From Flavobacterium sp. (lineage in GTDB: Bacteria > Bacteroidota > Bacteroidia > Flavobacteriales > Flavobacteriaceae), in the NCBI GenBank assembly GCA_031383535.1, contig JANMZS010000175.1, positions 2,844 to 66,843 of the forward strand: a DNA stretch of 64,000 bases, given 5' to 3'. A program made the translations under genes and the position numbers. The notes under the pieces are model-generated. The model did no database searches. It had not been told where the DNA came from and saw nothing but the letters and a program-made list of their open reading frames with translations. This document shows, piece by piece, positions 2,611-63,367 of this stretch (its first letter is position 1; every line of letters begins with the position of its first letter).

Positions 2611-3744
2611 TTGAATCCCTTATTTTCTATTATAATTCCTTGTTATAACCAAGCACATTTTTTGCCACAGTGTTTGGATTCGTTATTGAAACAAGAATAC
2701 AAAAATTGGGAAGCCATAGTAGTTAATGATGGTTCATCCGATAATACAGATAAAGTTTGTCAAAAGTATGCAGCGGTTGATTCTCGAATTAAATTGGTTA
2801 AGAAAACAAATGGCGGTTTATCCTCTGCTAGAAATTTTGGAATAGCGAATGCACTTGGCAGTCGCTTTATTTTTTTAGACGCGGATGATTTTTTATACCC
2901 GAATTGTTTAGAAAAAATAACTAAAGCTTTACAGGATTCTGACGATAATGTATTAATCCAATATGGATATACTTATGTAAAAGAGGATGGGAATGAAATT
3001 TTAAGCCATACCAATGCTCAAAAAAAATCATCCTTAATTCCAGATATTTTTGAAGCAAACTTAGGACCTTGTCATTCTATTTGTATCAGTCGTTCCCTAG
3101 CTTTTGCTTCTGGTTCGTTTGATGAAAATTTAAAAAGTGTCGAAGATTGGGATTTTTGGATTAGGGCTGTAAAAGCTGGAGGTACACAAAAAATTATTTC
3201 TGAAAAACTAGTCTATTATCGATATGCCAAAAACAGCATGAGCCGAGATGGTTTTGTGATGTTTGATGCCCTAAAAAAAGTAATTGAAAGAGGTTCTAAA
3301 AAGGATTTGCGAATTACTATCGAAAGCGAATTAAATAAAGACTATAACTTTAATTCAAATAGCGTGATTCAACAGGTGTTATTGAGGTCACTTGGAGTAA
3401 GTGTTATGCAAGGCAAAATTGATGAAAGCATTCATTTTTTAAAAGAAAATTCTCCAATTGCACTAAATAAATATAAAGTTGCTGATTTTGAATACATGTG
3501 TTCTTATCTAAGTTTTAGGTATTGGTATAGTCCATCTGATATAAAAGAAGTGTTTGAATCTATTACCCCCAATTTCAAATTGTTTTTTAATCGGTTAGGA
3601 TATTCAAAAACTAAGACTAATAGAACACTCTATCATGTTTTTAAAAGACATTATTTTTACAAGAATAATTTTAGATACGGAAAATTTATGGGGGGTATAA
3701 TTAATTTTAGTACTCGTTTTTATTATGAAAAGTTTTTAGCTTAA
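2611..3744 (+). CDS. Glycosyltransferase family 2 (TTG start)
   Basis: SIIIPCYN, VNDGSSD, GLSSARN, FLDADD, EDWDFW. Confidence 0.9.
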   Translation: MNPLFSIIIPCYNQAHFLPQCLDSLLKQEYKNWEAIVVNDGSSDNTDKVCQKYAAVDSRIKLVKKTNGGLSSARNFGIANALGSRFIFLDADDFLYPNCLEKITKALQDSDDNVLIQYGYTYVKEDGNEILSHTNAQKKSSLIPDIFEANLGPCHSICISRSLAFASGSFDENLKSVEDWDFWIRAVKAGGTQKIISEKLVYYRYAKNSMSRDGFVMFDALKKVIERGSKKDLRITIESELNKDYNFNSNSVIQQVLLRSLGVSVMQGKIDESIHFLKENSPIALNKYKVADFEYMCSYLSFRYWYSPSDIKEVFESITPNFKLFFNRLGYSKTKTNRTLYHVFKRHYFYKNNFRYGKFMGGIINFSTRFYYEKFLA

Positions 3745-5914: not shown

Positions 5915-6831
5915 AAGAAAAAGTTATTTACGCCGCTTTTGTAATGACTTATAAAAGACCTGCGATTTTATTGGAAACGATTAATAAATTGTTTGACCAA
6001 ACATTCCCTCCAGAAGTAGTTTTGATTATTGACAATGATTCGGAAAAAAGTGCTTTAAATATTGTAAATAATTTTCCAAAAAATAAAGTTCAATATTATG
6101 CTGTGGGTTATAATTCAGGGCCTGCCGGAGGAGCTTATTTTGGAATGAAGTTGCTTTTTGAACAAAATTGGGACTGGGTGTTGTGGACTGATGATGACGA
6201 TCCGCCTGTATTTGAAGACTCAATACAAAACATTTTTGGTTTATTAAATCAATATAAAGGAAAAAAGCCAATAGGAATGATTGGTGCTGTAGGTTCCAAT
6301 TTTAATAAACTTAAGGGTTCGATTACAAGAATTAGCAGTGGTAAGATAGAGGATATTCAGATTGTCGATTACATAGGGGGAAGTATGTCGCCTATTGTAA
6401 ATAAACAAGTATTTAACAAATCGATTTTGCCAAACCCTGATTTGTTCTTTGGTTTTGAAGATTTATCATTTTGCTTACAAGTGAAAAAAGCAGGATTTGA
6501 AATTGTAATTTTAGGTAGTGAAATGTTAAGATGGAGAGAGAAGTTTAATCGTCTAAACATTTCTACAACCTCGCATAATTTACCAGATATATCCACTTTA
6601 TGGCGCCAATATTATTCGGTTAGAAGTCTTTTTACCATCTTATATAGACAAGAAAAAGTAATAATAGGATTGTTTTATTTTATTTTTAAAACAGTTTTTA
6701 AATCTTTTTTGGGATACAAAAAGGGCTTAAGTTATGGTAACAAATATGCTAAAATTCATTTATTAGGACTATATCATGGAATGATTGGGAAAAATGGATG
6801 TGTTCTTCTACCTGAGAAAAAATATAGTTAA
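5905..6831 (+). CDS. Glycosyltransferase family 2 (rhamnosyltransferase-like)
   Basis: TYKRP, IDND, NSGPAGG, WTDDDD, FFGFEDL. Confidence 0.8.
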   Translation: MEIKEKVIYAAFVMTYKRPAILLETINKLFDQTFPPEVVLIIDNDSEKSALNIVNNFPKNKVQYYAVGYNSGPAGGAYFGMKLLFEQNWDWVLWTDDDDPPVFEDSIQNIFGLLNQYKGKKPIGMIGAVGSNFNKLKGSITRISSGKIEDIQIVDYIGGSMSPIVNKQVFNKSILPNPDLFFGFEDLSFCLQVKKAGFEIVILGSEMLRWREKFNRLNISTTSHNLPDISTLWRQYYSVRSLFTILYRQEKVIIGLFYFIFKTVFKSFLGYKKGLSYGNKYAKIHLLGLYHGMIGKNGCVLLPEKKYS

Positions 6832-42611: not shown

Positions 42612-43472
42612 ATGAATACTACCGAAAATGACTGGTTGTTTGAAATAACGCCAAAAAATAAATTCTTCACACTCAACTTAAAAGAAGTTTGGCAATACAG
42701 AGATTTGTTATTCCTTTTTGTAAAAAGAGATGTTGTAACGGTTTATAAACAAACTATTTTAGGCCCATTGTGGTACTTAATACAACCCTTGTTTACGGCT
42801 TTTACTTTTACAATTATTTTTAATAATGTTGCAGGAATAAAAACAGGTGTCGTTCCTTCTTTTTTGTTTAATTTAGCAGGAATAACGGTTTGGAATTATT
42901 TTACGGCTTGTCTTACAGGTACTTCAAATACCTTTGGAAGTAATGCAGGAATCTTTGGAAAAGTATATTTTCCCAGGTTAATAGTGCCAATATCAATTGT
43001 GATTTCTAATTTATTAAAATTTGGAATTCAATTTTTTATTTTTATTGTATTTTATGTTTATTATTTTCTTCATGGAGCTACCATTAGTCTCAATTTTACT
43101 ACACTTTTTTTTCCTTTAATTGTTGTTTTAATGGGAGTACTCGGACTCGGATTAGGAATGATTATTTCTTCTTTAGTTACTAAATACAGAGATTTTAGTT
43201 ATCTCATCGGTTTTGGGGTACAGTTGTTAATGTATTTATCTGCTGTGATGTATCCTATGGCACTATTACAAACTAAAATGCCTCAATATGCTTGGTTGGT
43301 TCAATACAATCCATTGGCATATATTATTGAATTAACGCGGTATATGCTATTGGGAATAGGCCATTTTTCAGTTTTAGGGCTTTTATATACAATTGTAATA
43401 ACAATAGCTGTTTTTTTATCAGGTTTGTTAATCTTTAATAAAACAGAGAAAAATTTTATCGATACCGTTTAG
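42612..43472 (+). CDS. wzm: ABC-2 polysaccharide exporter permease
   Basis: RDLLFLFVKRD, YKQTILG, KVYFPR, YRD, NPL. Confidence 0.93.
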   Translation: MNTTENDWLFEITPKNKFFTLNLKEVWQYRDLLFLFVKRDVVTVYKQTILGPLWYLIQPLFTAFTFTIIFNNVAGIKTGVVPSFLFNLAGITVWNYFTACLTGTSNTFGSNAGIFGKVYFPRLIVPISIVISNLLKFGIQFFIFIVFYVYYFLHGATISLNFTTLFFPLIVVLMGVLGLGLGMIISSLVTKYRDFSYLIGFGVQLLMYLSAVMYPMALLQTKMPQYAWLVQYNPLAYIIELTRYMLLGIGHFSVLGLLYTIVITIAVFLSGLLIFNKTEKNFIDTV

Positions 43473-43541
43473 AGGATAATAAATAGTCTATTTGTTAGGT
43501 TGTCTTCACATAATTTATTCAAAAAAATAGCAATTAAGTAA

Positions 43542-44633
43542 ATGAAAGTAGCATTAATTACAGGGGTAACAGGACAAGATGGTGCTTATTTAGCTGAACT
43601 TTTATTGTCAAAAAAATATAAAGTTCACGGTATAAAACGAAGAAGTTCTTTGTTTAACACTCAAAGGGTAGATCACCTATATGAAGATCCTCATATTGAC
43701 AATCAGAATTTTATTTTGCATTATGGAGATTTGACCGATGCAACTAATTTAATTCGAATAATACAAGAAACTCAGCCTGACGAAATATATAATTTAGGCG
43801 CCATGAGCCATGTCAAAGTGAGTTTTGATATTCCTGAATATACCGCTGATACTGACGGAATAGGGACACTTCGAATTTTGGATGCCGTTCGTTTATTAGG
43901 ATTAACCAAAAAAACACGAATTTATCAAGCTTCAACATCCGAATTATATGGACTAGTTCAAGAAGTGCCACAATCTGAAACAACCCCTTTTTATCCCCGT
44001 TCGCCTTATGCTGTAGCTAAAATGTATGCTTTTTGGATCACGGTAAACTATCGCGAAGCTTATGGTATGTATGCCTGTAATGGTATTTTATTTAATCATG
44101 AAAGCCCTTTAAGAGGAGAGACTTTTGTAACCCGAAAAATTACTCGTGGAATTGCTCAAATGGCAATGGGTTTACAAGATACGCTGTATATGGGAAATAT
44201 TGATTCGCAACGGGATTGGGGTCATGCTAGAGATTATGTTGAGGCTATGTGGTTGATGTTGCAACAAGACCAAGCCGAAGATTTTGTAATATCCACCGGC
44301 GTAACAACTTCTGTTCGTGAATTTATAAAAATGGCATTTAATGAAGTTGGTGTCGAACTAGAATTCAAAGGAGAAGGAGTAAATGAAATCGGAATAGTAA
44401 AGACAACAGTCAATGATGATTATGAATTTCAAATAGGACAAGTGGTGATTCAAATTGACTCTAATTACTTTCGTCCCACCGAAGTCGATTTACTTATAGG
44501 AGATAATACCAAAGCCAAAACAAAATTAGGTTGGAAACCTAGATACACACTCCCAATGCTTATAAAAGAGATGATGCAGGCAGATGTTGAATTGTTTAAA
44601 AAAGAAAAATACCTTCAAAATTATAATAAATAG
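43542..44633 (+). CDS. gmd: GDP-mannose 4,6-dehydratase
   Basis: [52 protein letters not shown]. Confidence 0.97.
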
Positions 44634-44638
44634 TTGCC

Positions 44639-45568
44639 ATGGTTTTAGATTCCAAAATATATGTGGCGGGTCATCGAGGAATGGTGGGAAGTGCTATTGT
44701 GAAAAACCTGAAACAAAAAGGGTTTACTACTATTATTACAAGAACCTCCTCGGAATTGAATTTGATTAATCAACAAGATGTGGCTGATTTTTTTGCTACC
44801 GAAAAACCAGAATATGTTTTTTTGGCTGCCGCCAAAGTAGGCGGAATAGTAGCTAATGCAACCTATAAAGCTGATTTTATTTATGAGAACATCCTCATTC
44901 AATCTAATGTGATTCATGAAAGTTACAAGAATAATGTGAGTAAATTACTTTTTTTAGGTTCAACTTGTATTTATCCAAAAATGGCACCACAGCCTATGAA
45001 AGAAGACTATCTTTTAACAGGTTTGTTAGAAGAATCTAACGATGCCTATGCTATAGCAAAAATAGCAGGAATCAAAATGTGTGATGCCTATCGGGCGCAA
45101 TATGATTGTAATTTTATATCCGTAATGCCCACTAACTTATATGGGTTGAATGATAATTATGATTTGCAAAATTCTCATGTATTACCTGCTTTATTGCGAA
45201 AATTTCACGAGGCTAAAACAAATAATCATTCAGAAGTAACCGTATGGGGCAGCGGATTACCATTAAGAGAATTTTTGCATGCTACAGATATGGCAGACGC
45301 CTGTGTGTATTTGATGCAAAATTATAATGAAAAAGGTTTTGTAAATATTGGCACTGGCGAAGAAATTTCTATCAATGATCTGGCTATTTTAATAAATGAT
45401 ATAGTTGGTTTTCAAGGAAAAATTATTTTTGATACCACAAAACCCGACGGAACACCTAGAAAATTAACTGATACAACTAAATTACATGCTTTGGGCTGGA
45501 AACATTCAATACATTTGAGAGAGGGAATACAACAAGTGTATGTTGAAAAGTTTAGTGTTAAAAAATGA
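44639..45568 (+). CDS. fcl: GDP-L-fucose synthase
   Basis: [50 protein letters not shown]. Confidence 0.96.
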
Positions 45569-45572
45569 AATT

Positions 45573-46457
45573 ATGAAAAAGCTAATACATTCGTTATTAA
45601 AAAGCTTAGGTTTTAAAATAGTAAATACAGGAATAAAGGAAAAACAGTATCAAAATTTTGTAAAAAGTTTTGCGCTAGAAAATGACCCTAATAATTTGGT
45701 TTATAAATCTGCTGCTGATTTGATTGTAATTAAAAAATATTTCCCAGACTTAGCTTTAGAGAATCATAAAGAAGGAGTTTTAGTTAGGTTTAATGATTTG
45801 AAATTATACATCGAAACTTCCGAAGAGTTTTTTATACTCAAAGAAGTTTTTGTCGAAAAAGACTATAATCTTTTGTCCAATGAAGACTTGGTCGTTTTTG
45901 ATATCGGAATGAATATCGGCATTAGTTCTTTATTTTTTGGATTAAAAAAAAATGTAGAAAAAATATATTCTTTTGAACCTGTTGTAAACACATATCAACA
46001 AGCAATATACAATGTAGCATTGAATAAAGAGTTGTCAACCAAAATTGAAGCTTTTAATATTGGTTTAGGAGCGACTACCCGAGTGGAGAAAGTGCTTTAC
46101 AACCCTCAAGCCAAAGGCAATTGTGGTATTCGATTGGAGTCAAGTCTTGTAATCGATAAAAATAATTCAAAAGAAATAGAAATTAAGATTAAGGATATAA
46201 ACGACATACTTCCTGATTTGTTTGTAAAGCACAAAGGACTGAAAAAGGTTTTGAAAATAGATTGTGAAGGTGCCGAATATGAAATACTTAAAAGATTGAA
46301 TGATAGTGCTATCTTGACCGAAATAGATGTATTGCTCATCGAGTGGCATGATAAAGGTGCCGAGAGTCTTGAAAATGTATTGATTGAAAATAATTTCAGA
46401 GTGGTTTCAAGGTATTTGACTTCCATCTCTGGGATGATTTATGCTTTTAAACACTAA
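45573..46457 (+). CDS. FkbM-family methyltransferase
   Basis: DIGMNIG, SFEP, LKIDCEGAEYEI; start at ATG 45573. Confidence 0.88.
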   Translation: MKKLIHSLLKSLGFKIVNTGIKEKQYQNFVKSFALENDPNNLVYKSAADLIVIKKYFPDLALENHKEGVLVRFNDLKLYIETSEEFFILKEVFVEKDYNLLSNEDLVVFDIGMNIGISSLFFGLKKNVEKIYSFEPVVNTYQQAIYNVALNKELSTKIEAFNIGLGATTRVEKVLYNPQAKGNCGIRLESSLVIDKNNSKEIEIKIKDINDILPDLFVKHKGLKKVLKIDCEGAEYEILKRLNDSAILTEIDVLLIEWHDKGAESLENVLIENNFRVVSRYLTSISGMIYAFKH

Positions 46458-46474
46458 TTAGTAGTTCAAATAGT

Positions 46475-46550
46475 ATGACAAATCCTAAAGTATCCATTGT
46501 TATCCCCCTGTTACAAACTTGCTAAATACTTAGATGAAGTATTACAGTAA
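46475..46550 (+). pseudogene. GT2 5' stub 1
   Basis: Reads MTNPKVSIVIP, then after a +1 frameshift in a C5 run CYKLAKYLDEVLQ*. Homologous to the start of the GT2 at 50403. Confidence 0.85.
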
Positions 46551-46578
46551 ATTGTAGGCGAAAATAAATTAACAAAAA

Positions 46579-46631
46579 AACATCAACACATTGATGTTAA
46601 TTTATTAAAAAAACATCAATACGTTGACGTT
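46579..46631. promoter_or_regulatory. Two tandem 20-bp palindromic operator-like sites
   Basis: aacatcaa-caca-ttgatgtt (46579-46598) and aacatcaa-tacg-ttgacgtt (46612-46631), 33 bp apart, just upstream of TATATTTG at 46638-46645. Confidence 0.7.
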
Positions 46632-46660
46632 TTTAGTTATATTTGTAAAAAAATAGAGAC

Positions 46661-47851
46661 GTGCAAAAATTAGTCGCCCAATTTTATGAAAAATACGCTC
46701 TGGTACAAACCCAGCAAGTGCGAGATTTTATCCATACTATAGATTGGAATAACCGATTTATTGGAATAAAAGGAAGTCGTGGCGTAGGCAAAACTACGCT
46801 ATTGTTGCAGTACATTCGTTTGAATTTTGAGCCTAATAAAAGTGTTTTGTATGTTAGTTTGGATCATTTGTATTTTCTCGAAAACACGCTTTATGATTTA
46901 GTAAACGATTTTTATAAAAAAGGAGGGTTGTTTATTGCCATCGATGAGGTTCATAAATATCCTAATTGGGCTATCGAAATTAAAAATATTTATGACGATA
47001 TGCCTCATCTGAGGTTGGTTTTTACCAGTTCGTCCTTACTGCATATCCAACAAGCAAAAGCTGATTTGAGTAGGCGTGTAGTGATGTATACTATGCCAGG
47101 CTTGTCTTTTAGAGAATTTATTCAGTTTGAAACCCAAATCAAATTAGATAGTTATTCGCTCAAAGATATTATCGACAATCACATCGCTATCAGCATGGCT
47201 ATTACACAAAAAATAAAACCTTTGCAGTATTTTGAGGATTACTTGGATTATGGCTATTATCCCTTTTACATCGAAAACAAAAAATCATTTCATCAAAAAT
47301 TGAGCGAAGTGATTCTCACGGTTTTAGAAGTTGATATTCCACAATATGCTTCCATTCCAGTTTCGAATAGTGTTTTGTTAAAAAAATTATTGGCGGTAAT
47401 TAGTAATTCAGTTCCTTTTAAGCCTAATATGAACGCTATTAGTGAGCGAACCGGGATAAGTCTCAACACCATGAAAAATTATTTAAAATTGTTGAATGAC
47501 GCTCAGCTTCTGCAACTTTTGTTTGTAGAAGACAAAGGGATTAATAGTTTAGGAAAACCAGAAAAAATTTATTTAAACAACTCTAATTTGATGTATAACT
47601 TGGGTAACGATGCAAATAAGGGGAACATAAGAGAAACCTTTTTTTTGAACCAAGTACGGTACAAGTATGCAGTTTTTGCCTCTAAAACAGTAGATTTTAA
47701 AGTCGATGGAATGCATGAATTTGAATTAGGAGGCAGAAACAAAAAACAGGAACAAATTGCAGCATTGCAAAATGCTTTTATAGTAAAAGACGATGTTGAA
47801 ATAGGATCCGATGTAACGATTCCTTTATGGTTGTTTGGGTTTTTATATTAA
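46661..47851 (+). CDS. AAA+ ATPase, COG1373/AAA_14-DUF4143 type (GTG start)
   Basis: Walker A GSRGVGKT, Walker B IDEVHK, GYYP, C-terminal DF..FELGG. Confidence 0.85.
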   Translation: MQKLVAQFYEKYALVQTQQVRDFIHTIDWNNRFIGIKGSRGVGKTTLLLQYIRLNFEPNKSVLYVSLDHLYFLENTLYDLVNDFYKKGGLFIAIDEVHKYPNWAIEIKNIYDDMPHLRLVFTSSSLLHIQQAKADLSRRVVMYTMPGLSFREFIQFETQIKLDSYSLKDIIDNHIAISMAITQKIKPLQYFEDYLDYGYYPFYIENKKSFHQKLSEVILTVLEVDIPQYASIPVSNSVLLKKLLAVISNSVPFKPNMNAISERTGISLNTMKNYLKLLNDAQLLQLLFVEDKGINSLGKPEKIYLNNSNLMYNLGNDANKGNIRETFFLNQVRYKYAVFASKTVDFKVDGMHEFELGGRNKKQEQIAALQNAFIVKDDVEIGSDVTIPLWLFGFLY

Positions 47852-47896
47852 ATAAACAAAAAAATGAGCATAATAAAAATTAGAGATTAATATAAA

Positions 47897-47929
47897 ATGA
47901 CAAATCCTTCAGTCTCTATCATCGTTCCA
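47897..47929 (+). pseudogene. GT2 5' stub 2
   Basis: atgacaaatccttcagtctctatcatcgttcca = MTNPSVSIIVP, homologous to stub 1 and to 50403; similarity stops abruptly. Confidence 0.75.
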
Positions 47930-48067
47930 TTTGTGAGGACATATTAAATACTATCTAAAAGGAATATTTGTAAAACTATCAATGTGTTACTATTTCAAAT
48001 AGTTTTAAATATGTTTAAAAAATATTGTTTATTAATGTTAAATTTAAAGTATGTTTAAAATTTTTTA

Positions 48068-48075
48068 TATATTTG
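48068..48075 (+). promoter_or_regulatory. Putative -7 box for the second ATPase
   Basis: TATATTTG followed by TAAAA, the same context as the first ATPase promoter; tatgtttaaaa occurs twice upstream (48010, 48050). Confidence 0.55.
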
Positions 48076-48102
48076 TAAAAATTTTAAATGTAAATTAAAC
48101 TA

Positions 48103-49320
48103 ATGTCTTTTAAAATACCTAATCCTATTGTAAAAAGAGAAGACTACCTCAAGCGGGTTATTCCTTTTATAGGTAAGAACTTGATTAAGGTTTTTACGGG
48201 GCAACGCCGTGTAGGCAAAAGTTATTTATTATTTCAAATTATGGATTATTTGTTGGAGCAAGAGCGTCAAACTGCTATTGTTTATATCAATAAAGAGGAT
48301 ATTGCTTTCTCGGCAATTCAAACAGCACAAGATTTGCACGATTATGTTCTACAACAAAAGTCAAACACTACCAAAACCTACGTTTTTATAGATGAAATTC
48401 AAGACATAGAAAATTTTGAAACAGCACTGCGTTCTTTGTTACTTCATGAGGATATAGATTTGTATTGCACGGGGAGCAATGCCAAATTGTTGTCGGGTGA
48501 TATTGCGGGTTATTTGAGTGGGCGAGCCATCGAAATTGTGATTTATAGTTTGTCTTATCCCGAGTTTTTAGTTTTTCATTCCTTAGAAGATAGTGTCCAA
48601 ACGCTGGAGCTCTATCTCCAATACGGAGGACTTCCTTATTTGAAAAATCTTGTATTAGAAGAAGTTGTTGTCTATGAATATCTAAAAAATATTTACAATA
48701 CCATTGTGTATCGAGACATTATCAATCGGTTTTCAATTCGCAATGTTTCGTTTTTAGAACAACTGGTTTTATTTTTGGCCAGCAACATTGGCAGTCTTTT
48801 TTCGGCCAAAAAAATTAGTGATTTTTTAAAGTCACAACGTATCAATATCGCTTCAAATCAGGTGCAAACGTACAGCGACCATTTGGTCAATGCTTTTTTG
48901 ATACACCGAGTTAGCAGATACGATTTGGTGGGAAAACGTATTTTTGAAACAGGAGAAAAATATTATTTTGAGAATCTAGGCATTCGAAATGCATTGTGGG
49001 GTTATCGTCTAGAAGATCGGGGGAAAATTATGGAGAATGTGGTGTATAATCATTTGCTTTTTAGAGGCTATCAAGTACATGTGGGTAATTTAGGGTCTCT
49101 AGAAATTGATTTTGTTGCCCAGCGTGCTGGCGAAAAGGTATATGTGCAAGTAGCATTGTCTATCAATGAGGCAAAAACAATGGAACGAGAATTTGGAAAT
49201 TTAAAGAAGATTAAAGATAATTTTCCGAAAATGGTTATCACTCTTGATGCCTTTCAAGGCAATACCAATGAGGGAATATTAGCAATAGATTTAAGAAGTT
49301 TTCTTTTATCTAAAATATAG
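48103..49320 (+). CDS. AAA+ ATPase, COG1373/AAA_14-DUF4143 type
   Basis: Walker A GQRRVGKS, Walker B IDEIQ, TGSNA, GGLP, KYYFENLG, EIDFVA...YVQV (PD-(D/E)xK-like). Confidence 0.9.
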   Translation: MSFKIPNPIVKREDYLKRVIPFIGKNLIKVFTGQRRVGKSYLLFQIMDYLLEQERQTAIVYINKEDIAFSAIQTAQDLHDYVLQQKSNTTKTYVFIDEIQDIENFETALRSLLLHEDIDLYCTGSNAKLLSGDIAGYLSGRAIEIVIYSLSYPEFLVFHSLEDSVQTLELYLQYGGLPYLKNLVLEEVVVYEYLKNIYNTIVYRDIINRFSIRNVSFLEQLVLFLASNIGSLFSAKKISDFLKSQRINIASNQVQTYSDHLVNAFLIHRVSRYDLVGKRIFETGEKYYFENLGIRNALWGYRLEDRGKIMENVVYNHLLFRGYQVHVGNLGSLEIDFVAQRAGEKVYVQVALSINEAKTMEREFGNLKKIKDNFPKMVITLDAFQGNTNEGILAIDLRSFLLSKI

Positions 49321-49348
49321 AAAAAGTAGCACAATAATAGTTTTAAAC

Positions 49349-49471
49349 ATGAATAATACGCCAGTCTCCATTATCGTTCCCTGCTACAACCTCGCTCAAT
49401 ACTTGGACGAAGCTTTGTAGTCTATTTATAACCAAGCCTACACCGATTGGGAATGTATTATTGTGGATGAT
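49349..49471 (+). pseudogene. GT2 5' stub 3
   Basis: MNNTPVSIIVPCYNLAQYLDEAL*SIYNQAYTDWECIIVDD. 41 codons colinear with 50403-50525; TAG replaces CAG. Confidence 0.9.
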
Positions 49472-49554
49472 GTAAATTATAAATCAAGTAGCTCAAAGTA
49501 TTTATATCAAAAATAGAGCTGAAAATGACGGCAATAAATTAAAAACCATACTAA

Positions 49555-50391
49555 ATGACAAATTTAAAACTATTTGAAAACCAACAAATTCGTTCCGATT
49601 GGAACGAAGAGGAGCAAGAGTGGTATTTTGCGGTGGTAGATGTTGTAGCCGTTTTAACAGGCAGTAGTGATCCAAAAGACTATTGGTACAGGATGAAAAA
49701 GCGTGAAAAAGTTTCAGGGTTTGAGTTATCGACAATTTGTCGACAACTGAAATTAGAGTCAAGCGATGGTAAAAAGTATGCAACCGATTGTGCTACAAAA
49801 CAAGGATTGTTGCGAATTATCCAATCTATTCCTTCACCAAAAGCAGAACCTTTCAAACAATGGTTAGCACACGTTGGAGCGGAAAGAATAGCCGAAATAG
49901 AAAACCCAGAGTTAGCACAAGAACGCATTAGAGCTACCTATAAGGCTAAAGGTTACAGTGATGAATGGATAGAAAAACGAATTCGTGGGATTTTAGTTCG
50001 TGATGAACTGACTAATGAATGGAAAAAAAGAGGAGTAAAAGAAGGAAAAGAGTATTCTATTTTAACCGCAGAAATAAGCAAAGCAACATTTGGAATTATT
50101 CCTAGTGATTATAAAAAACTAAAAGGATTAACAAAATCATCTGACAATCTTCGAGATCATATGACTGACTTGGAACTTATCTTTACTATGCTTGGAGAAG
50201 CATCAACAACTGAAATAGCTAAAAACAAAAATGCAAAAGGTTTTATAGAGAATCATAAAGCTGCCAAAGCTGGCGGAGGCGTTGCGGGTAAAGCACGTAA
50301 GGACTTAGAGCAAAAGTCGGGTAATAAAATTGTAAGTAATCAAAATTTTAAGGAACTTTCTGAAAATTTAAACAAGAAAAAATTAGAATAA
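49555..50391 (+). CDS. BRO-N domain protein (phage antirepressor-like family)
   Basis: WYFAVVDVV, LKLESSDGK, IIQSIPSPKAEPFKQWLA, KGYSDEWI, NLRDHMT. Confidence 0.8.
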   Translation: MTNLKLFENQQIRSDWNEEEQEWYFAVVDVVAVLTGSSDPKDYWYRMKKREKVSGFELSTICRQLKLESSDGKKYATDCATKQGLLRIIQSIPSPKAEPFKQWLAHVGAERIAEIENPELAQERIRATYKAKGYSDEWIEKRIRGILVRDELTNEWKKRGVKEGKEYSILTAEISKATFGIIPSDYKKLKGLTKSSDNLRDHMTDLELIFTMLGEASTTEIAKNKNAKGFIENHKAAKAGGGVAGKARKDLEQKSGNKIVSNQNFKELSENLNKKKLE

Positions 50392-50402
50392 TACTTTATA
50401 AA

Positions 50403-51287
50403 ATGAATCATCCTAAAGCCTCCATTATCGTTCCCTGCTACAACCTCGCTCTATACTTGAACGAAGCCTTGCAGTCTATTGATGACCAAACCTACCCCCA
50501 TTGGGAATGTATCATTGTGGATGATGGAAGTCAGGATAATACTGCGGAAGTTTCTAAAAAATGGGAAGCCAAAGATTCTCGGTTTATCTATTTGTATAAA
50601 GAAAACGGAGGTGTAAGTAATGCTCGAAATGTAGGGATTGACAAAGCTAAATATGAATTTATCTTGACATTAGATGCCGATGATAAATACGAAGCTACCT
50701 TTCTTGAAAAAGCAATGAAGGTCTTGTTAGCCCATGACGAATTGGGTATCGTGAGCAGTTGGGGGCAGTATTTTGTAGCCGATAAATTATTTCAGATTTA
50801 TAGAATGACAGGAAAGTCAACAGTAGATTTTTTATTTTATAATGATGCAGTTGGCACTTCGTTATTCCGAAAAAAATGTTGGGAGCAAGTGGGTGGTTAT
50901 GACGAAAATTCAAAAAACGGCTATGAAGACTGGGAGTTTTACCTGAGAGTGTGTGCGGTAGGTTGGAAGGTACATATTATCGAAGAAGTTCTCTTTTATT
51001 ACCGACAGCATGTTGTTTCTAGGCGCAAAGAAATGAATCAGAAGGAAAATGAAAATAAAAAGTATATTTTTATGAAAAATAAACAAATATATTTTGAACA
51101 TTATGAAACCTTCGTCGATCGTTATTTGTTAAGTTGTAATAAAGAAAAAGAAGAAAACAATAAATATGCAAACACGATTGATTATAAATTAGGCACTGCG
51201 ATTTTGAAACCATTACGAAGTGTAAAATGGTTTTTTTTGAATTTATTAACGAATAAGAAAACCAAAAATTACAACCTTTTTTCATGA
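50403..51287 (+). CDS. Glycosyltransferase family 2 (intact)
   Basis: SIIVPCYN, VDDGSQD, NARNVG, LDADD, EDWEFY. Confidence 0.92.
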   Translation: MNHPKASIIVPCYNLALYLNEALQSIDDQTYPHWECIIVDDGSQDNTAEVSKKWEAKDSRFIYLYKENGGVSNARNVGIDKAKYEFILTLDADDKYEATFLEKAMKVLLAHDELGIVSSWGQYFVADKLFQIYRMTGKSTVDFLFYNDAVGTSLFRKKCWEQVGGYDENSKNGYEDWEFYLRVCAVGWKVHIIEEVLFYYRQHVVSRRKEMNQKENENKKYIFMKNKQIYFEHYETFVDRYLLSCNKEKEENNKYANTIDYKLGTAILKPLRSVKWFFLNLLTNKKTKNYNLFS

Positions 51288-52251
51288 AAGAAATTAAGAT
51301 AAATTTTGTGGACTTTTGGCCAGGTTTCGATAAAACAAACAATTATTTCTATAATTTGTTGGTTCAAAAATACGATGTGATTATTGATGAAAATCCAGAG
51401 GTACTATTTTATTCTTGTTATGACAACAAATATTTAAAGTACAATTGTATTCGTATTTTTTACACTGCCGAAAATGTTAGACCCGATTTCACGGCTTGTG
51501 ATTTTTCCTTTTCGTTTGATTATAATGACAGAGTGAATCATTATAGATTGCGTTATACTCCATGTATGTTGACCTACTTAACATGAACGATAAATTGCAC
51601 TTCATACCAACAAGAGCAGAAGCAATAAAAAAATGGGAAACTAAAACTAAATTTTGTTGTATGGTAGTGTCCAATGCAAGAGCTAAAGAAAGACTCTGGT
51701 TTTTTAATACACTTTCTAAAGTAAAGCAGGTTGATTCTGGCGGTTCACTACTCAATAATGTAGGAGGAAAAGTAGCTGATAAATTAGAATTCATTAAGGA
51801 TTATAAGTTTGTCATTTCTTTTGAAAACAGTGTTTATGATGGATACACTACTGAGAAAATTTTAGAACCCATTTTTAAAGATTGTATACCCATTTATTGG
51901 GGGAATAAATTAGTAGGTCAAGATTTTAATTCCAATAGATTTATCGATTATAATTCATTCGAATCCGAAGAAGAACTGATTACTAAATTGCTCGAAATAG
52001 ACCAAAACGATGATTTGGCTATTGATATGTTGATGCAACCTACTTTTAATGAGCATAAATTATCACATAATGAAGAACGCATTCAAGTACTTCAAATTTT
52101 AAGTGAAATAATAGAAAATCCAAAGAAGCCTATTGCTACTAAATTTTGGAAACACTTGCACAATGTTAAAATAAAGTTTAAAAAAAATAAAAAAAAGAGT
52201 ATCAGCAAGACTTCAAATTGTATTTTTGAAAATAAATGTGACAGAAAATGA
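51284..52251 (+). pseudogene. Alpha-1,3/1,4-fucosyltransferase (GT10), split by a 1-bp deletion near 51551
   Basis: The two ORFs join as ...NHYRL[P]LYSMYVDL if ttg cg tta is restored to ttg ccg tta. GT10 motifs: ENVRPDF, KFCCMVVSN, YKFVISFENS, GYTTEKI, PIYWG. Confidence 0.85.
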
Positions 52252-52299
52252 GTAAATTCATTCGTTTTTCGGACTACAAAGAATTACAATAATAGTTCT

Positions 52300-52307
52300 T
52301 ATCTTTG
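52300..52307 (+). promoter_or_regulatory. Putative -7 box for the TA-like pair
   Basis: TATCTTTG 20 bp upstream of the ATG. Confidence 0.5.
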
Positions 52308-52327
52308 TTTGAATAAATTATTCAGCT

Positions 52328-52630
52328 ATGCCAAAACTATATGAATATCTAGGAATAATTTTGTTTTTCTATTCCAACGAACACGAACCTATTCACGTTC
52401 ACGCTAAAAAAGGTGAGTTTGAAAGTAAAGCAACATTTTGTATTGAAAATGGAGTAATTACAGAAATCAACATAGTAAATGTTAGAGGCAGAAAACCATT
52501 AGTAAACAAAGAATTAAAAGATTTTGAATCATTTTTAGCAGTCTATTCAGAAAAAATTGTTGAAAAATGGATAGCCTATTTTATATATCACAAGGAAATT
52601 GAATTTGAAAAAATAACTAAAAAAATATAA
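52328..52630 (+). CDS. DUF4160-like protein (putative TA component)
   Basis: MPKLYEYLGI.LFFYSNEHEPIHVH N-terminus. Confidence 0.75.
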   Translation: MPKLYEYLGIILFFYSNEHEPIHVHAKKGEFESKATFCIENGVITEINIVNVRGRKPLVNKELKDFESFLAVYSEKIVEKWIAYFIYHKEIEFEKITKKI

Positions 52631-52634
52631 TCAG

Positions 52635-52916
52635 ATGAGAATTACAGTCAAAACCACAAATAGTTATTTAGATAAAACAATATCTATAATTAGCGCCAAA
52701 AATCTTGGGAATTATACTATTTTAGTTCAGTTTAATGATGGTGTAGAAAAATTTGTTAATTTTTCGGATTTTTTATCAAAATCACAACATCAATCCATAA
52801 AAAAATATTTAGACGAAACTCTTTTTGATACATTTAAGATTGTAGACGGTAATCTAAACTGGAATGATTATGATTTAATTTTTCCAATTGCGGCTTTGTA
52901 CGACGGAAAAATTTAG
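52635..52916 (+). CDS. DUF2442-like protein (putative TA component)
   Basis: Y.ILVQFNDG, F..FKIVDGNLNWNDYD; paired with DUF4160. Confidence 0.7.
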   Translation: MRITVKTTNSYLDKTISIISAKNLGNYTILVQFNDGVEKFVNFSDFLSKSQHQSIKKYLDETLFDTFKIVDGNLNWNDYDLIFPIAALYDGKI

Positions 52917-61502: not shown

Positions 61503-62708
61503 ATGAAATTTTTAATAATTGAGCAAGATTTACGAATTTCGGGAACCAGTCAAGGAATTATCTCCCGCTCATTTTTGGCAAAATTAAGAACAGCTTATCC
61601 TGACTCCATCATTGATGTTCATTATCTTAAACAATCCTCTAGTGAAGATCAATTAGGCTTATTGCCTGTAAATTTGATACAAGAGTATGTTTTGGATTTA
61701 AAAATTCCTTTTTTTACCAAATGGTTCAATACAATTTACTGGAGATTATTTCACGTGTCCTTAGCTAGTAATCATGTATATCAAGTTTACAGAGATTGTA
61801 TAGCTAAAATTGACTATCATCAATACGATCATATCTTTATACGAAGTGCAGGGTTGAATTGTGAAACTATTATAGGCGCCAAAGATTTGCCTGTCCTCAA
61901 GAAATCCATAATTACCTTCAATGAGCCTTATCCTTTGTTTTGGTGTACTGGTTCGTTAAGCCCTCTGACCTCTCTTGAACTCTTTAAACTGAAAGAAATG
62001 TTTGAAGTGATTTCTCAAGCTAAATCGTGTATGGCAACCGCATTATTAGCCCAAGATCTAGAATATGTTTATGGTTCTAGAAAAAAAATCTATCCAATGC
62101 CTCATCAATACGACCCAAGTGTTTTTGATTTGTCGGATGTAAGTGAATTGGTCAAAAAGAAGAAGAAAATCTTGATTTCTTACCATGGAGCGCTACAGTT
62201 TGGCAGAAACATAGAAATAGTTTTGGATACATATCTTGAATTGGTCGAAAGCAATTTGAAGTACAAAGAAAACACAGAATTTGTGATTCGAGTAAAAGGT
62301 GCCGATTTTAAAAAAATAGAATCAAAGTATGCTGATACGTCTAATATTACCGTTTTGTTCATTTCCAATTTTTCTAATTCTTGTAATGAACAAATGAACG
62401 AAGCCGATATCAATATCATTTTAGAAAACGGACCATTATATTGTAATATTTTGGTGGGTAAAGCCCCATTTTTAGCATCCATACCCAAACCGATTCTTAG
62501 TATTTCGCCCGAACGAAGCGAAATGCGAAACATTATACAAGACCCACAATACATCGCTAGTTGTACTGATAAAGCCGAAATTAAACAAAAACTCGAAAAT
62601 CTAATTGTCAATAGAATGAACTCGGACGAAGCAGTTTATCCTTTTGGGGATTATTTTAGTGATGCGAATTTTAAACTGAGATTAGATAAGATTTTGTTGG
62701 AAAAATGA
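61503..62708 (+). CDS. Probable GT-B fold glycosyltransferase
   Basis: 401-aa ORF in the GT cluster; ISYHGALQFGRN, DINIILEN, GKAPFL. Family is uncertain. Confidence 0.55.
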   Translation: MKFLIIEQDLRISGTSQGIISRSFLAKLRTAYPDSIIDVHYLKQSSSEDQLGLLPVNLIQEYVLDLKIPFFTKWFNTIYWRLFHVSLASNHVYQVYRDCIAKIDYHQYDHIFIRSAGLNCETIIGAKDLPVLKKSIITFNEPYPLFWCTGSLSPLTSLELFKLKEMFEVISQAKSCMATALLAQDLEYVYGSRKKIYPMPHQYDPSVFDLSDVSELVKKKKKILISYHGALQFGRNIEIVLDTYLELVESNLKYKENTEFVIRVKGADFKKIESKYADTSNITVLFISNFSNSCNEQMNEADINIILENGPLYCNILVGKAPFLASIPKPILSISPERSEMRNIIQDPQYIASCTDKAEIKQKLENLIVNRMNSDEAVYPFGDYFSDANFKLRLDKILLEK

Positions 62709-62782
62709 AAATTTAAAATTGAATTCAAATAATACAACTTTTGAAAAACGAGTTGCAAGTTAGATTCTTTGCTTACTTTTGT

Positions 62783-63217
62783 ATGAGAACGGTTAGTCAT
62801 AGAAAATTTATTGTCTAATAATTATACATCACAAGCCCGAAACAAGCTAATTGCCAGAGCGTTCAAGGAAGTGGGTATGATTGAACGATATGGTTCAGGG
62901 ATTCGAAGAATACTAAATATATGTGAACAATATGGGATTATTCAACCCAAAATCGAAGAAGTATTCAACTGTTTTCGAATTTTACTGTTCAAAGAAAAAC
63001 GCAACAGCACCGATGTCGTAGATAATGTCGTAGCTAATCGATTAGAAATAATATTGGACTTAATCAATAAAAAAAATACAATTTCTGCAAACCAAATAGC
63101 AAAACGATTGAATATAACGCACCGAACCGCACAAAGAGACCTCGGAAATTAAAAAAAATAAACAAACTAAAACGAATAGGTACTGAAAAAACGGGTTATT
63201 GGCAAATTTTGAAGTAA
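62783..63217 (+). pseudogene. Relic of an ATP-binding/RecG-C (HATPase_c_4) plus HTH transcriptional regulator
   Basis: Only the C-terminal part is left (RNKLIA..F...GMIERYGSGI, then HTH SANQIAKRLNITHRTAQRD). A 1-bp frameshift near 63145 precedes KLKKINKLKRIGTEKTGYWQILK*. A -7 box TACTTTTG lies at 62774-62781. Confidence 0.75.
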
Positions 63218-63223
63218 TTTAAA

Positions 63224-63367
63224 TACTGATAAAAAAAACAAAAATTCGCAATTTTAATCCCCAATAGAATGAGTTCTAATGAGCCAGTTTATCCGTTTGG
63301 AGATTATTTTAGTGATGCCAATTTTAAAGTGATGTTGGCTGAGGTGTTGGTTCAGTCTAAAAAGTAA
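63224..63367 (+). pseudogene. Second, diverged copy of the 3' end of the 61503 gene
   Basis: NRMSSNEPVYPFGDYFSDANFKVMLAEVLVQSKK* versus NRMNSDEAVYPFGDYFSDANFKLRLDKILLEK* at 62564-62708. Confidence 0.88.

Follow-up and report, generated by a model that had tools for sequence, protein, structure and literature searches.

The stretch of DNA analysed here (the window) consists of 64,000 nucleotides from a Flavobacterium species (GenBank assembly GCA_031383535.1, contig JANMZS010000175.1, positions 2,844 to 66,843 of the forward strand). It corresponds to G000:C109:2844-66843 in a draft genome of 2.97 Mb (referred to below as G000), and the contig to which it belongs is 70 kb in length. The subject of this work is an array that precedes an intact gene for a family-2 glycosyltransferase (GT2), and in which three shortened copies of the GT2 start, which we will refer to as stubs, are each followed by a cargo gene whose function is unrelated to glycosyl transfer according to its Pfam and PADLOC matches. 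The array is part of a glycan locus of the Wzm/Wzt type, where the genes occur in the order wzm (42612), gmd, fcl, the gene for an FkbM methyltransferase, the array, GT2, a frameshifted gene for a GT10 fucosyltransferase, a DUF4160/DUF2442 pair and wzt (53017). A cargo gene together with its control region is called a cassette. The features of the array, all on the plus strand, are as follows:

45540..46457, plus strand: FkbM-type methyltransferase (Pfam PF05050), the conserved left neighbour of the array
46475..46550, plus strand: stub1, apparently the oldest GT2 5' remnant, ~25 codons (76 nt), with a +1 frameshift via an extra C
46571..47851, plus strand: AAA1 cassette, with palindromes, promoter box and an AAA_14-DUF4143 open reading frame (ORF) at 46661-47851, ending at the stop codon
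47897..47929, plus strand: stub2, reading MTNPSVSIIVP, 33 nt, 11 demonstrable codons of the GT2 start
47990..49320, plus strand: AAA2 cassette, with a promoter region and an AAA_14-DUF4143 ORF at 48103-49320; its left boundary is approximate, being taken from the alignment with the 89% identical orthologue of genome G290
49321..49475, plus strand: left copy of what appears to be the youngest duplication, comprising a 28-nt spacer and stub3
49476..50391, plus strand: BRO cassette, with a leader of ~80 nt and a Bro-N ORF at 49555-50391 (Pfam Bro-N)
50378..50529, plus strand: right copy of the same putative duplication, comprising the spacer and codons 1 to 41 of the intact GT2
50403..51287, plus strand: intact GT2 (Pfam PF00535, E=2e-32)

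A preliminary description of this DNA, made from the sequence alone, had reported the order and coordinates of the stubs and cargo genes, a frameshift and a TAG codon in the stubs, and promoter boxes ahead of the ATPase genes; all of these were confirmed, as were the unequal lengths of the stubs (about 25, 11 and 41 codons). Stub1 reads MTNPKVSIVIP, after which an extra C causes a +1 frameshift and the reading continues as CYKLAKYLDEVLQ up to a stop codon. The 33-nt match of stub2 to the GT2 start was equalled in 1 of 2000 shuffles, and after its 11 codons the sequence is unrelated. A longer extent of stub2 was also considered, but it was not significant in G000 (496/2000 shuffles) and is suggested solely by the longer stub of G290. 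Stub3 (49349-49471) comprises 41 codons, with TAG at codon 24, and is 87% identical to the GT2 start. With the spacer of about 28 nt upstream of it, this stub forms one arm of a direct repeat (49321-49475, 155 nt, versus 50378-50529, 152 nt), the arms of which are 84–87% identical; for stub1 (76 nt) and stub2 (33 nt), blastn detects no partner repeat. The motif M-x(3-6)-[VI]-S-[IV][IV][IV]-P has four matches in a six-frame translation of the whole 2.97-Mb genome and, as three of these are the stubs, their presence is not due to chance. Nor are they an artefact of assembly, because orthologous stubs occupy the same places in two other species.

The inserts measure 0.9–1.3 kb each and the gaps between stubs and cargo are 84–173 nt, with no remnant of the GT2 3' end within them. 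No transposase, integrase or other mobile element was found by Pfam among the ORFs from 42612 to 52916, and tyrosine recombinases (PF00589) are limited to four matches in the genome, none of them on the 70-kb contig, in agreement with the earlier remark that no integrase is visible. No conserved cassette termini or att sites were observed when nine cassette junctions, and AAA1 in seven genomes, were compared. These results bear upon two related proposals, viz. that the cassettes were captured in an integron-like manner by a recombinase encoded elsewhere, or that the array is what remains of GT2 genes that once stood in tandem and have since decayed. The cassettes are indeed co-oriented, promoter-bearing and stacked beside one gene, and tandem GT2 genes do occur in relatives. 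However, the contig lacks an integrase and the genome has so few, the junctions and repeat lengths are variable without a common end motif, no GT2 3' remnant is left in the short gaps, and GT2 is uninterrupted in G290 where G000 has stub3 and BRO. Both proposals are already contradicted by these observations, and we regard them as extremely improbable. The likeness to an integron that had been drawn previously is correct in so far as a stacked array is present without an integrase, but it is an analogy only, since the cassettes have no att-like ends in common.

Both ATPases are composed of AAA_14 and DUF4143 domains, whereas the third cargo protein contains Bro-N (Pfam). In searches with the PADLOC family hidden Markov models, AAA2 matched PDC-S01 (E=2.8e-145), AAA1 matched the same family (1.5e-28) and BRO matched PDC-S13 (1.4e-124), and the three cargo genes are candidates for single-gene anti-phage defence. 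DUF4143 is reportedly classed with the PD-(D/E)XK nucleases; a literature search found no functional study of DUF4143 or PDC-S01. The TATATTTG boxes (TAnnTTTG), which we take to be the -7 promoter element of Bacteroidota, are located at 46638 and 48068, 15–27 nt upstream of the starts of the two ATPase genes. Upstream of AAA1, there are also two palindromes of the form ACATCAAnnnnTTGAyGT (46580-46597 and 46613-46630). One or two palindromes just upstream of the TAnnTTTG box were seen at AAA_14-DUF4143 genes in general, including those on contigs C112, C231, C237 and C80, and their sequence is conserved among orthologues and differs between paralogues. Because they are paralogue-specific and present at one end only, the palindromes upstream of the AAA genes are probably autoregulatory operators. 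No intrinsic terminator was found between the cassettes and, due to this lack of a terminator-like site, transcriptional read-through from the cassettes into GT2 is plausible.

Orthologues of AAA1 are present in six other species of the genus (73–90% amino acid identity). The homology spans from 46571-46590, about 85 nt upstream of the start, to the stop codon (47850-47858), and the flanks beyond it are unrelated; the boundaries of the unit are identical across the seven genomes while the flanks differ. In G088, AAA1 is found between 164-nt repeats that correspond to the first 54 codons of another GT2, and in G288 its flanking repeats are 78 nt long and come from the 3' end of wzm. Genomes G126 and G222 contain arrays of AAA1, AAA2 and AAA3 beside gmd, in different orders and without stubs. 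In several relatives, AAA1 is bordered not by gene-end repeats but by long stretches of tandemly repeated 7/14-nt units (GGTTGTT..., AGTGAGG...), which are located at L062:2101-2223 and 3575-3711, L067:6267-6854, and L065:5030-5064 and 6497-6593.

Syntenic loci were identified in the genus when FkbM, the gene to the left of the array, was used as the query. The FkbM orthologues of genomes G290 and G241 are 86% and 70% identical, respectively, and in both of them the same spacer and a stub come next. In G290, where gmd is 95% identical, FkbM is followed by a stub (MTNLSVSIVHCEKFAQYFEE and a stop codon), a pair of genes for proteins of 90 and 98 aa, which looks like a toxin-antitoxin (TA) pair, a second stub, AAA2 (89% identity) and an uninterrupted GT2 start, after which the contig ends. 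The second stub, which precedes AAA2, reads MTPLVSIIVPC, a stop codon and then NLAQYLDEALQSIFGQT (~30 codons in all) and is orthologous to stub2. In G241, FkbM is followed by a stub (MTLVSIIVPCYNQAQYLDVVLL and a stop codon), a remnant of AAA1 and the GT2 start, and here too the contig ends. In the remnant (L097, reverse strand, ~130-330), the two palindromes and the final 11 codons are retained; the AAA1 cassette of G241 was lost via an internal deletion and not by recombination between stubs. The rest of GT2 is unassembled in G290, and in G241 it is found on another contig, from residue 62. The intact GT2 of G000 shows 80% identity to the start in G290 and 77% identity to residues 62-283 in G241, while among 60 relatives no close orthologue of GT2 was detected (best match 53%) and stubs were absent.

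The site thus holds three units in G000 and, in the assembled parts of the other two loci, whose gaps may hold further cassettes, two in G290 (the TA pair and AAA2) and at least one in G241 (the deleted AAA1), each with a stub preceding it. That relatives should carry different cargo at this site, in each case preceded by a stub, had been set beforehand as a test, and the two loci lend support to the earlier view that the GT2 start received three separate insertions, each of which stranded the old start. In G000, G290 and G241, stub1 is preceded by one common spacer and ends alike in ...AGTAAAT, the stub before AAA2 is common to G000 and G290, and stub3 and BRO are private to G000. The slot behind the shared first stub is occupied by AAA1 in G000 and by the TA pair in G290. 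With cargo that differs among the three genomes, the array grows and its three cargo genes do not constitute a fixed block. Stub age appears to rise with distance from the intact GT2, and such a gradient away from the live gene is expected if every insertion hits the intact copy.

The insertion of BRO, which is the youngest event, is the only one for which an empty-site outgroup exists, the two older events having none. In G290, the sequence of AAA2, spacer and GT2 is collinear with AAA2, spacer and stub3 of G000 up to GATGATG, past which G000 enters the BRO unit and G290 enters GT2, BRO being missing from the site. This sequence of G290 is 85% identical to stub3 and 87% identical to the GT2 start of G000. 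A three-way comparison of stub3, the intact GT2 start and the G290 outgroup covered 123 nt with 25 variable sites. At nine of these sites, seven of them third codon positions, stub3 and the present GT2 start are joined against G290; another nine, including TAG, are private to stub3; and seven are private to the intact GT2 start, all of them non-synonymous (K5, A6, L17, N20, D27, D28 and P32). This site pattern indicates that stub3 and the GT2 start are sisters at neutral sites. The private changes on the GT2 N-terminus may reflect relaxed or diversifying selection. For the three GT2 stubs compared with GT2, the ratio of non-synonymous to synonymous differences (pN/pS) is 0.50, which lies close to the ~0.55 expected when one of the copies is free to drift while its counterpart is under constraint.

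Homology with a paralogue on contig C159, in which the BRO 3' end is identical, places the BRO unit between about 49476 and the stop codon at 50391. The junctions were mapped for microhomology, as had been suggested, and at the right junction the native BRO 3' end (AAAAAATTAGAATAA) and the native G290 spacer (AAAAAATAGAATAA) match at 14 of 15 nt, the first 14 nt of the right copy (50378..50529) overlapping the BRO 3' end. At the left junction, GAT(G/A)AT is common to both sequences (5/6 nt). According to the preliminary description, the site had been hit by incoming DNA that carried a cargo gene along with a fresh GT2 5' end. Such an event would amount to homology-facilitated illegitimate recombination (HFIR), where linear DNA with cargo and a foreign GT2 5' end undergoes a homologous crossover in GT2 and an illegitimate join a few codons in, leaving a native stub and a foreign live start. 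The BRO event does not bear this out: nine derived states are shared by the two copies, the intact start has the synonymous states of stub3 with zero private synonymous changes, and there is microhomology where the BRO end meets the native spacer. Because the repeat copies are sisters and the BRO end shares microhomology with the spacer, the sequence comparison favours duplication of the resident target over the arrival of a foreign GT2 5' end for this event, although junction microhomology is in itself compatible also with illegitimate mechanisms other than HFIR.

Similar footprints are present elsewhere in G000. For every ORF, the 50 residues at either terminus were searched against the neighbourhood of that ORF. 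N-terminal pieces were located upstream of their own gene 22 times and downstream of it 6 times, whereas C-terminal pieces were located downstream 15 times and upstream 3 times. A self-comparison of the DNA gave 75 direct-repeat pairs, which correspond to ~45 cassettes; their repeats, derived from gene 5' or 3' ends, are 28–290 nt long and 70–100% identical, and they bracket 0.4–4 kb. The GT2 start had earlier been viewed as a special landing pad, and this view has to be abandoned in light of the same footprint at ~45 gene ends, both 5' and 3', throughout the genome. Examples are given below.

C180:2528-4342; C112:24538-26024; C164:44520-45869; C243:17638-18971; C66:6401-8369: example cassettes with flanking gene-end repeats
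C80, 319-468, 1304-1456 and 2748-2884: gene-end copies surrounding two cassettes, which contain a 136-aa ORF and an AAA_14-DUF4143 gene
62583..63332 of the window, plus strand: mirror-image case, in which the 3' end of gene 61503-62708 (62583-62679) is repeated at 63236-63332

The region C80:319-2884 is a 3' mirror of the array, as the last ~150 nt of gene 50-460 are present three times. The repeat within the window (62583-62679/63236-63332) is 97 nt long and 81% identical, and it encloses a truncated gene of the RecG-C/helix-turn-helix (HTH) type at 62811-63152 (Pfam HATPase_c_4 and HTH). The repeat-flanked cargo includes a second BRO and six more AAA_14-DUF4143 genes, which together with the two in the array give eight such copies between stubs or repeats in G000. 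The further cargo consists of HigB/HTH, four PIN genes, DUF4160/DUF2442, MNT/HepT, YoeB, Gp49/HTH, DUF559, Fic, GIY-YIG, Abi_2 and an IS200 transposase; a YhcG/DUF1016 cassette is located inside the start of a murQ-like gene, and a few cassettes hold ordinary-looking genes. Young repeats were observed at BRO orthologues in G062 (87 nt, 97.7% identical, from the 3' end of an HTH gene) and G189 (34 nt, 100%) and around an AAA gene in G279 (185 nt, 95.7%). At G290:C106:2746-3473 (L137/L129), which corresponds to the AAA_14 site on contig C112 of G000, the gene end is accompanied by a 44-nt second copy ~60 nt away, and this short repeat looks like a stub that remained after loss of the cargo.

The composition of the cargo raises the question of whether insertion is catalysed by the cargo proteins, so that an AAA+/PD-(D/E)XK or other nuclease makes widely staggered nicks and each cassette is a one-gene mobile element. 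The eight AAA_14-DUF4143 copies in G000, the sharp and conserved boundaries of AAA1 in seven genomes, and the presence of the nuclease cargo YhcG, GIY-YIG and DUF559 are in line with this possibility. However, many cassettes contain only TA pairs, Fic, Abi or lipoproteins and no DNA nuclease, neither terminal repeats nor a conserved target motif were seen at the nine junctions or at AAA1 in the seven genomes, and the palindromes are operator-like and occur at one end only. A role of this kind for the cargo therefore seems very improbable.

The differences between the repeat copies provide another line of evidence. Outside the GT2 array, the two copies of a repeat differ mainly at third codon positions. 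In all scored repeat pairs of the genome, mismatches are distributed over the three codon positions as 107/88/223, and the pooled pN/pS is 0.24 for the clear cassettes (95% confidence interval 0.18–0.32) and 0.21 when the GT2 stubs are omitted. Judged by these sequence measures, many of the repeat copies genome-wide appear to behave as diverged alleles. A test of which copy is native, carried out at eight sites against four relatives, gave mixed results. At C164a (87.9 versus 84.8%), C178 (89.6 versus 84.3%) and murQ (96 versus 87.5%), the stub resembles relatives more than the intact end does, whereas the intact copy is the native-looking one at C7 (93 versus 78%) and C80 (93 versus 88%). The allele-like divergence of the copies and the three sites with a native-looking stub are as HFIR would have it, and the same mechanism has already been proposed for displacement arrays of the type VI secretion system (T6SS) and Rhs (PMC5361080). 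On the other hand, besides the evidence from BRO, the intact copy looks native at C7 and C80, relatives hold near-perfect long repeats, and later homologous exchange of the gene, or of a cassette with its stub, can also give allele-like divergence. In view of these results, we consider HFIR to be an unlikely origin for the array.

The same divergence could also arise by a Campbell-type spread, in which a repeat-flanked cassette is excised by RecA as a circle containing one repeat and the cargo, and re-enters another genome through one crossover within the corresponding gene end, so that both repeats are restored with allelic differences between them. This process accounts for repeats that diverge like alleles and for either copy looking foreign, and also for differing cargo behind the same stub in the same slot (AAA1 versus the TA pair); the repeats of 28–290 nt reach or exceed the usual minimum for RecA exchange. 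It is incapable, however, of giving a new gene its first stub, and yet orthologues of AAA1 occur at three targets with different repeats, and the BRO event resembles an in-situ duplication. As a source of the array, a spread of this type is, in our assessment, improbable; part of the cassettes in the genome may have originated in this way or by HFIR.

The interpretation that we consider probable, with moderate confidence, is that the array arose by three successive insertions of single-gene cassettes, each accompanied by a long target duplication of variable length at the GT2 5' end. Each promoter-bearing cassette would have entered whichever GT2 copy was then intact, at its 5' end, and duplicated a target made up of the short upstream spacer and the first 11–41 codons. 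One of the duplicates would stay joined to the GT2 body and keep the gene whole, while the other would be stranded upstream of the cargo and decay. If new insertions always strike the live copy, the oldest stub would come to be furthest from GT2, and in this order AAA1 and stub1 would be older than the split of the three species, AAA2 and stub2 older than the G000–G290 split, and BRO and stub3 specific for G000. The joints would be illegitimate, formed via short homology, and a site-specific recombinase would not be involved. Later homologous recombination through flanks and stubs may have swapped or deleted cassettes, as for the TA pair of G290 in the AAA1 slot and the deleted AAA1 of G241; spread of this kind would explain why the TA pair and AAA1 share a slot. 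The sequences show how the array is built, that its units arrived separately and in what order of age, that the site is without BRO in G290, that the BRO junction has microhomology and that the footprint recurs across the genome. How the duplication came about physically is inferred; it may have involved staggered breaks that were then filled in, a template switch accompanied by a back-jump, or a pair of illegitimate joins between sister chromosomes.

Several points weigh against this interpretation. The repeats in the array are only 73–87% identical and no event was caught fresh. The outgroup test applies to the BRO event only and to 25 variable sites, and seven non-synonymous but no synonymous private changes are odd for a constrained gene, so that GT2 could carry an allele imported from a very close strain or could be under relaxed or diversifying selection. 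The third-position bias and the low pN/pS of the repeat pairs are not predicted by in-situ decay, and they therefore require either later allelic exchange or a homology-anchored origin of many cassettes; the mixed outcome of the native-copy test is a further difficulty. Lastly, we know of no experimental demonstration of a mechanism that gives duplications of ~30–290 nt.

As for the genes to the right of the array, the GT10 alpha-1,3-fucosyltransferase that follows GT2 is split into overlapping frames (FucT_N, 51284-51586; Glyco_transf_10, 51562-52251), and it could be a frameshift pseudogene or the result of a sequencing error (51284-52251). The DUF4160/DUF2442 pair (52328-52916) is located between the fucosyltransferase and wzt, due to which the distance from wzm to wzt is ~10 kb. 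Repeats flanking this pair were looked for, but they amount to a 15-nt A-rich match, which is not meaningful; a second DUF4160/DUF2442 copy, on contig C235, has a flanking 55-nt repeat.

A broader proposal, which we put forward tentatively and think unlikely, is that promoter-bearing defence and addiction cassettes of one or two genes enter gene ends in flavobacteria, and perhaps in many bacteria, by a general route that is free of recombinases. Duplications of ~30–290 nt would keep the host gene alive, the stranded ends would serve as portable homology for stacking, swapping and interspecies transfer, and nuclease cargo (AAA_14-DUF4143, YhcG, GIY-YIG) may catalyse entry. The locus bears upon the open question of how defence genes enter chromosomal sites without mobile-element genes, as it offers a dated series in which three species have one, two and three cassettes, together with an empty site and junctions that have been mapped. 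With ~45 more cases in the genome, the question becomes testable in a tractable genus. It also indicates that glycan loci, which are under phage pressure themselves, accumulate defence genes, and that in annotation short, decayed remnants of a gene start or end next to small accessory genes should be read as insertion scars and not as random pseudogenes.

Insertions with long target duplications have been recognized by the following criteria: direct repeats of >30 bp that both align to a single copy in the empty site, no mobile-element gene in or beside the insert, and an insert of <20 kb (Furuta, Abe and Kobayashi, 2010; PMC2853133). The BRO insertion has a repeat of >30 bp (155/152 nt), a single copy at the empty site (G290) and no mobile-element gene. 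A true duplication is expected to have identical or nearly identical repeats; the values here are 73–87%, the BRO copies are sisters, and orthologous cargo in relatives has repeats of 95.7–100%. The restriction-modification units described in that work (PMC2853133) resemble the array in being small selfish or defence units without a transposase or integrase, with direct repeats of >30 bp, whose length changes from one event to the next, and a matching empty site. They differ from it in that the cargo here consists of single-gene defence candidates (PDC-S01, PDC-S13) and, genome-wide, also of TA pairs and others, in that the repeats are old (73–87%), with three events on one gene start and ~45 units per genome, and in that the host belongs to the Bacteroidota. 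To our knowledge, natural competence is not established in this host group.

With the cassette arrays of integrons and CALINs (clusters of attC sites lacking integron-integrases), the array shares co-oriented single-gene cassettes, of which the newest lies beside a fixed point, and a content that varies between relatives. However, IntI, attC and attI are lacking here, each cassette has its own promoter, and the separators are target-gene starts of differing length. In tRNA-gene islands and in phage 21/e14 in icd, the target is likewise kept intact by a flanking copy of its end and tandem arrays are possible, but these elements are many kilobases long and integrate at a fixed crossover site by means of an integrase.

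Displacement ('orphan') arrays at the loci for Rhs and contact-dependent growth inhibition (CDI) were reportedly described by Jackson in 2009 and Poole in 2011. In these and in the T6SS arrays of Vibrio cholerae, as in the present one, serial modules beside one gene push older pieces along and leave behind fragments and cargo, no integrase is involved, and the content differs between close relatives. The displaced pieces of the Rhs/T6SS arrays are variable 3' toxin ends with immunity genes and growth is downstream, whereas here the conserved 5' start of an enzyme gene is displaced; their cargo is tied to the displaced gene, whereas the cargo here is unrelated to GT2; and unlike allele displacement in those systems, the youngest event of the present array resembles a target duplication. 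For the T6SS effector-immunity arrays of V. cholerae, HFIR is the proposed mechanism (Kirchberger, 2017; PMC5361080). Footprints of this kind have thus been seen before, in restriction-modification units and in displacement arrays of the Rhs/T6SS type; the new aspects of the present case are their scale and density per genome, the nature of the cargo (single-gene defence candidates and TA pairs), the stacking of inserts on an enzyme gene's 5' end, and the dated series in three species.

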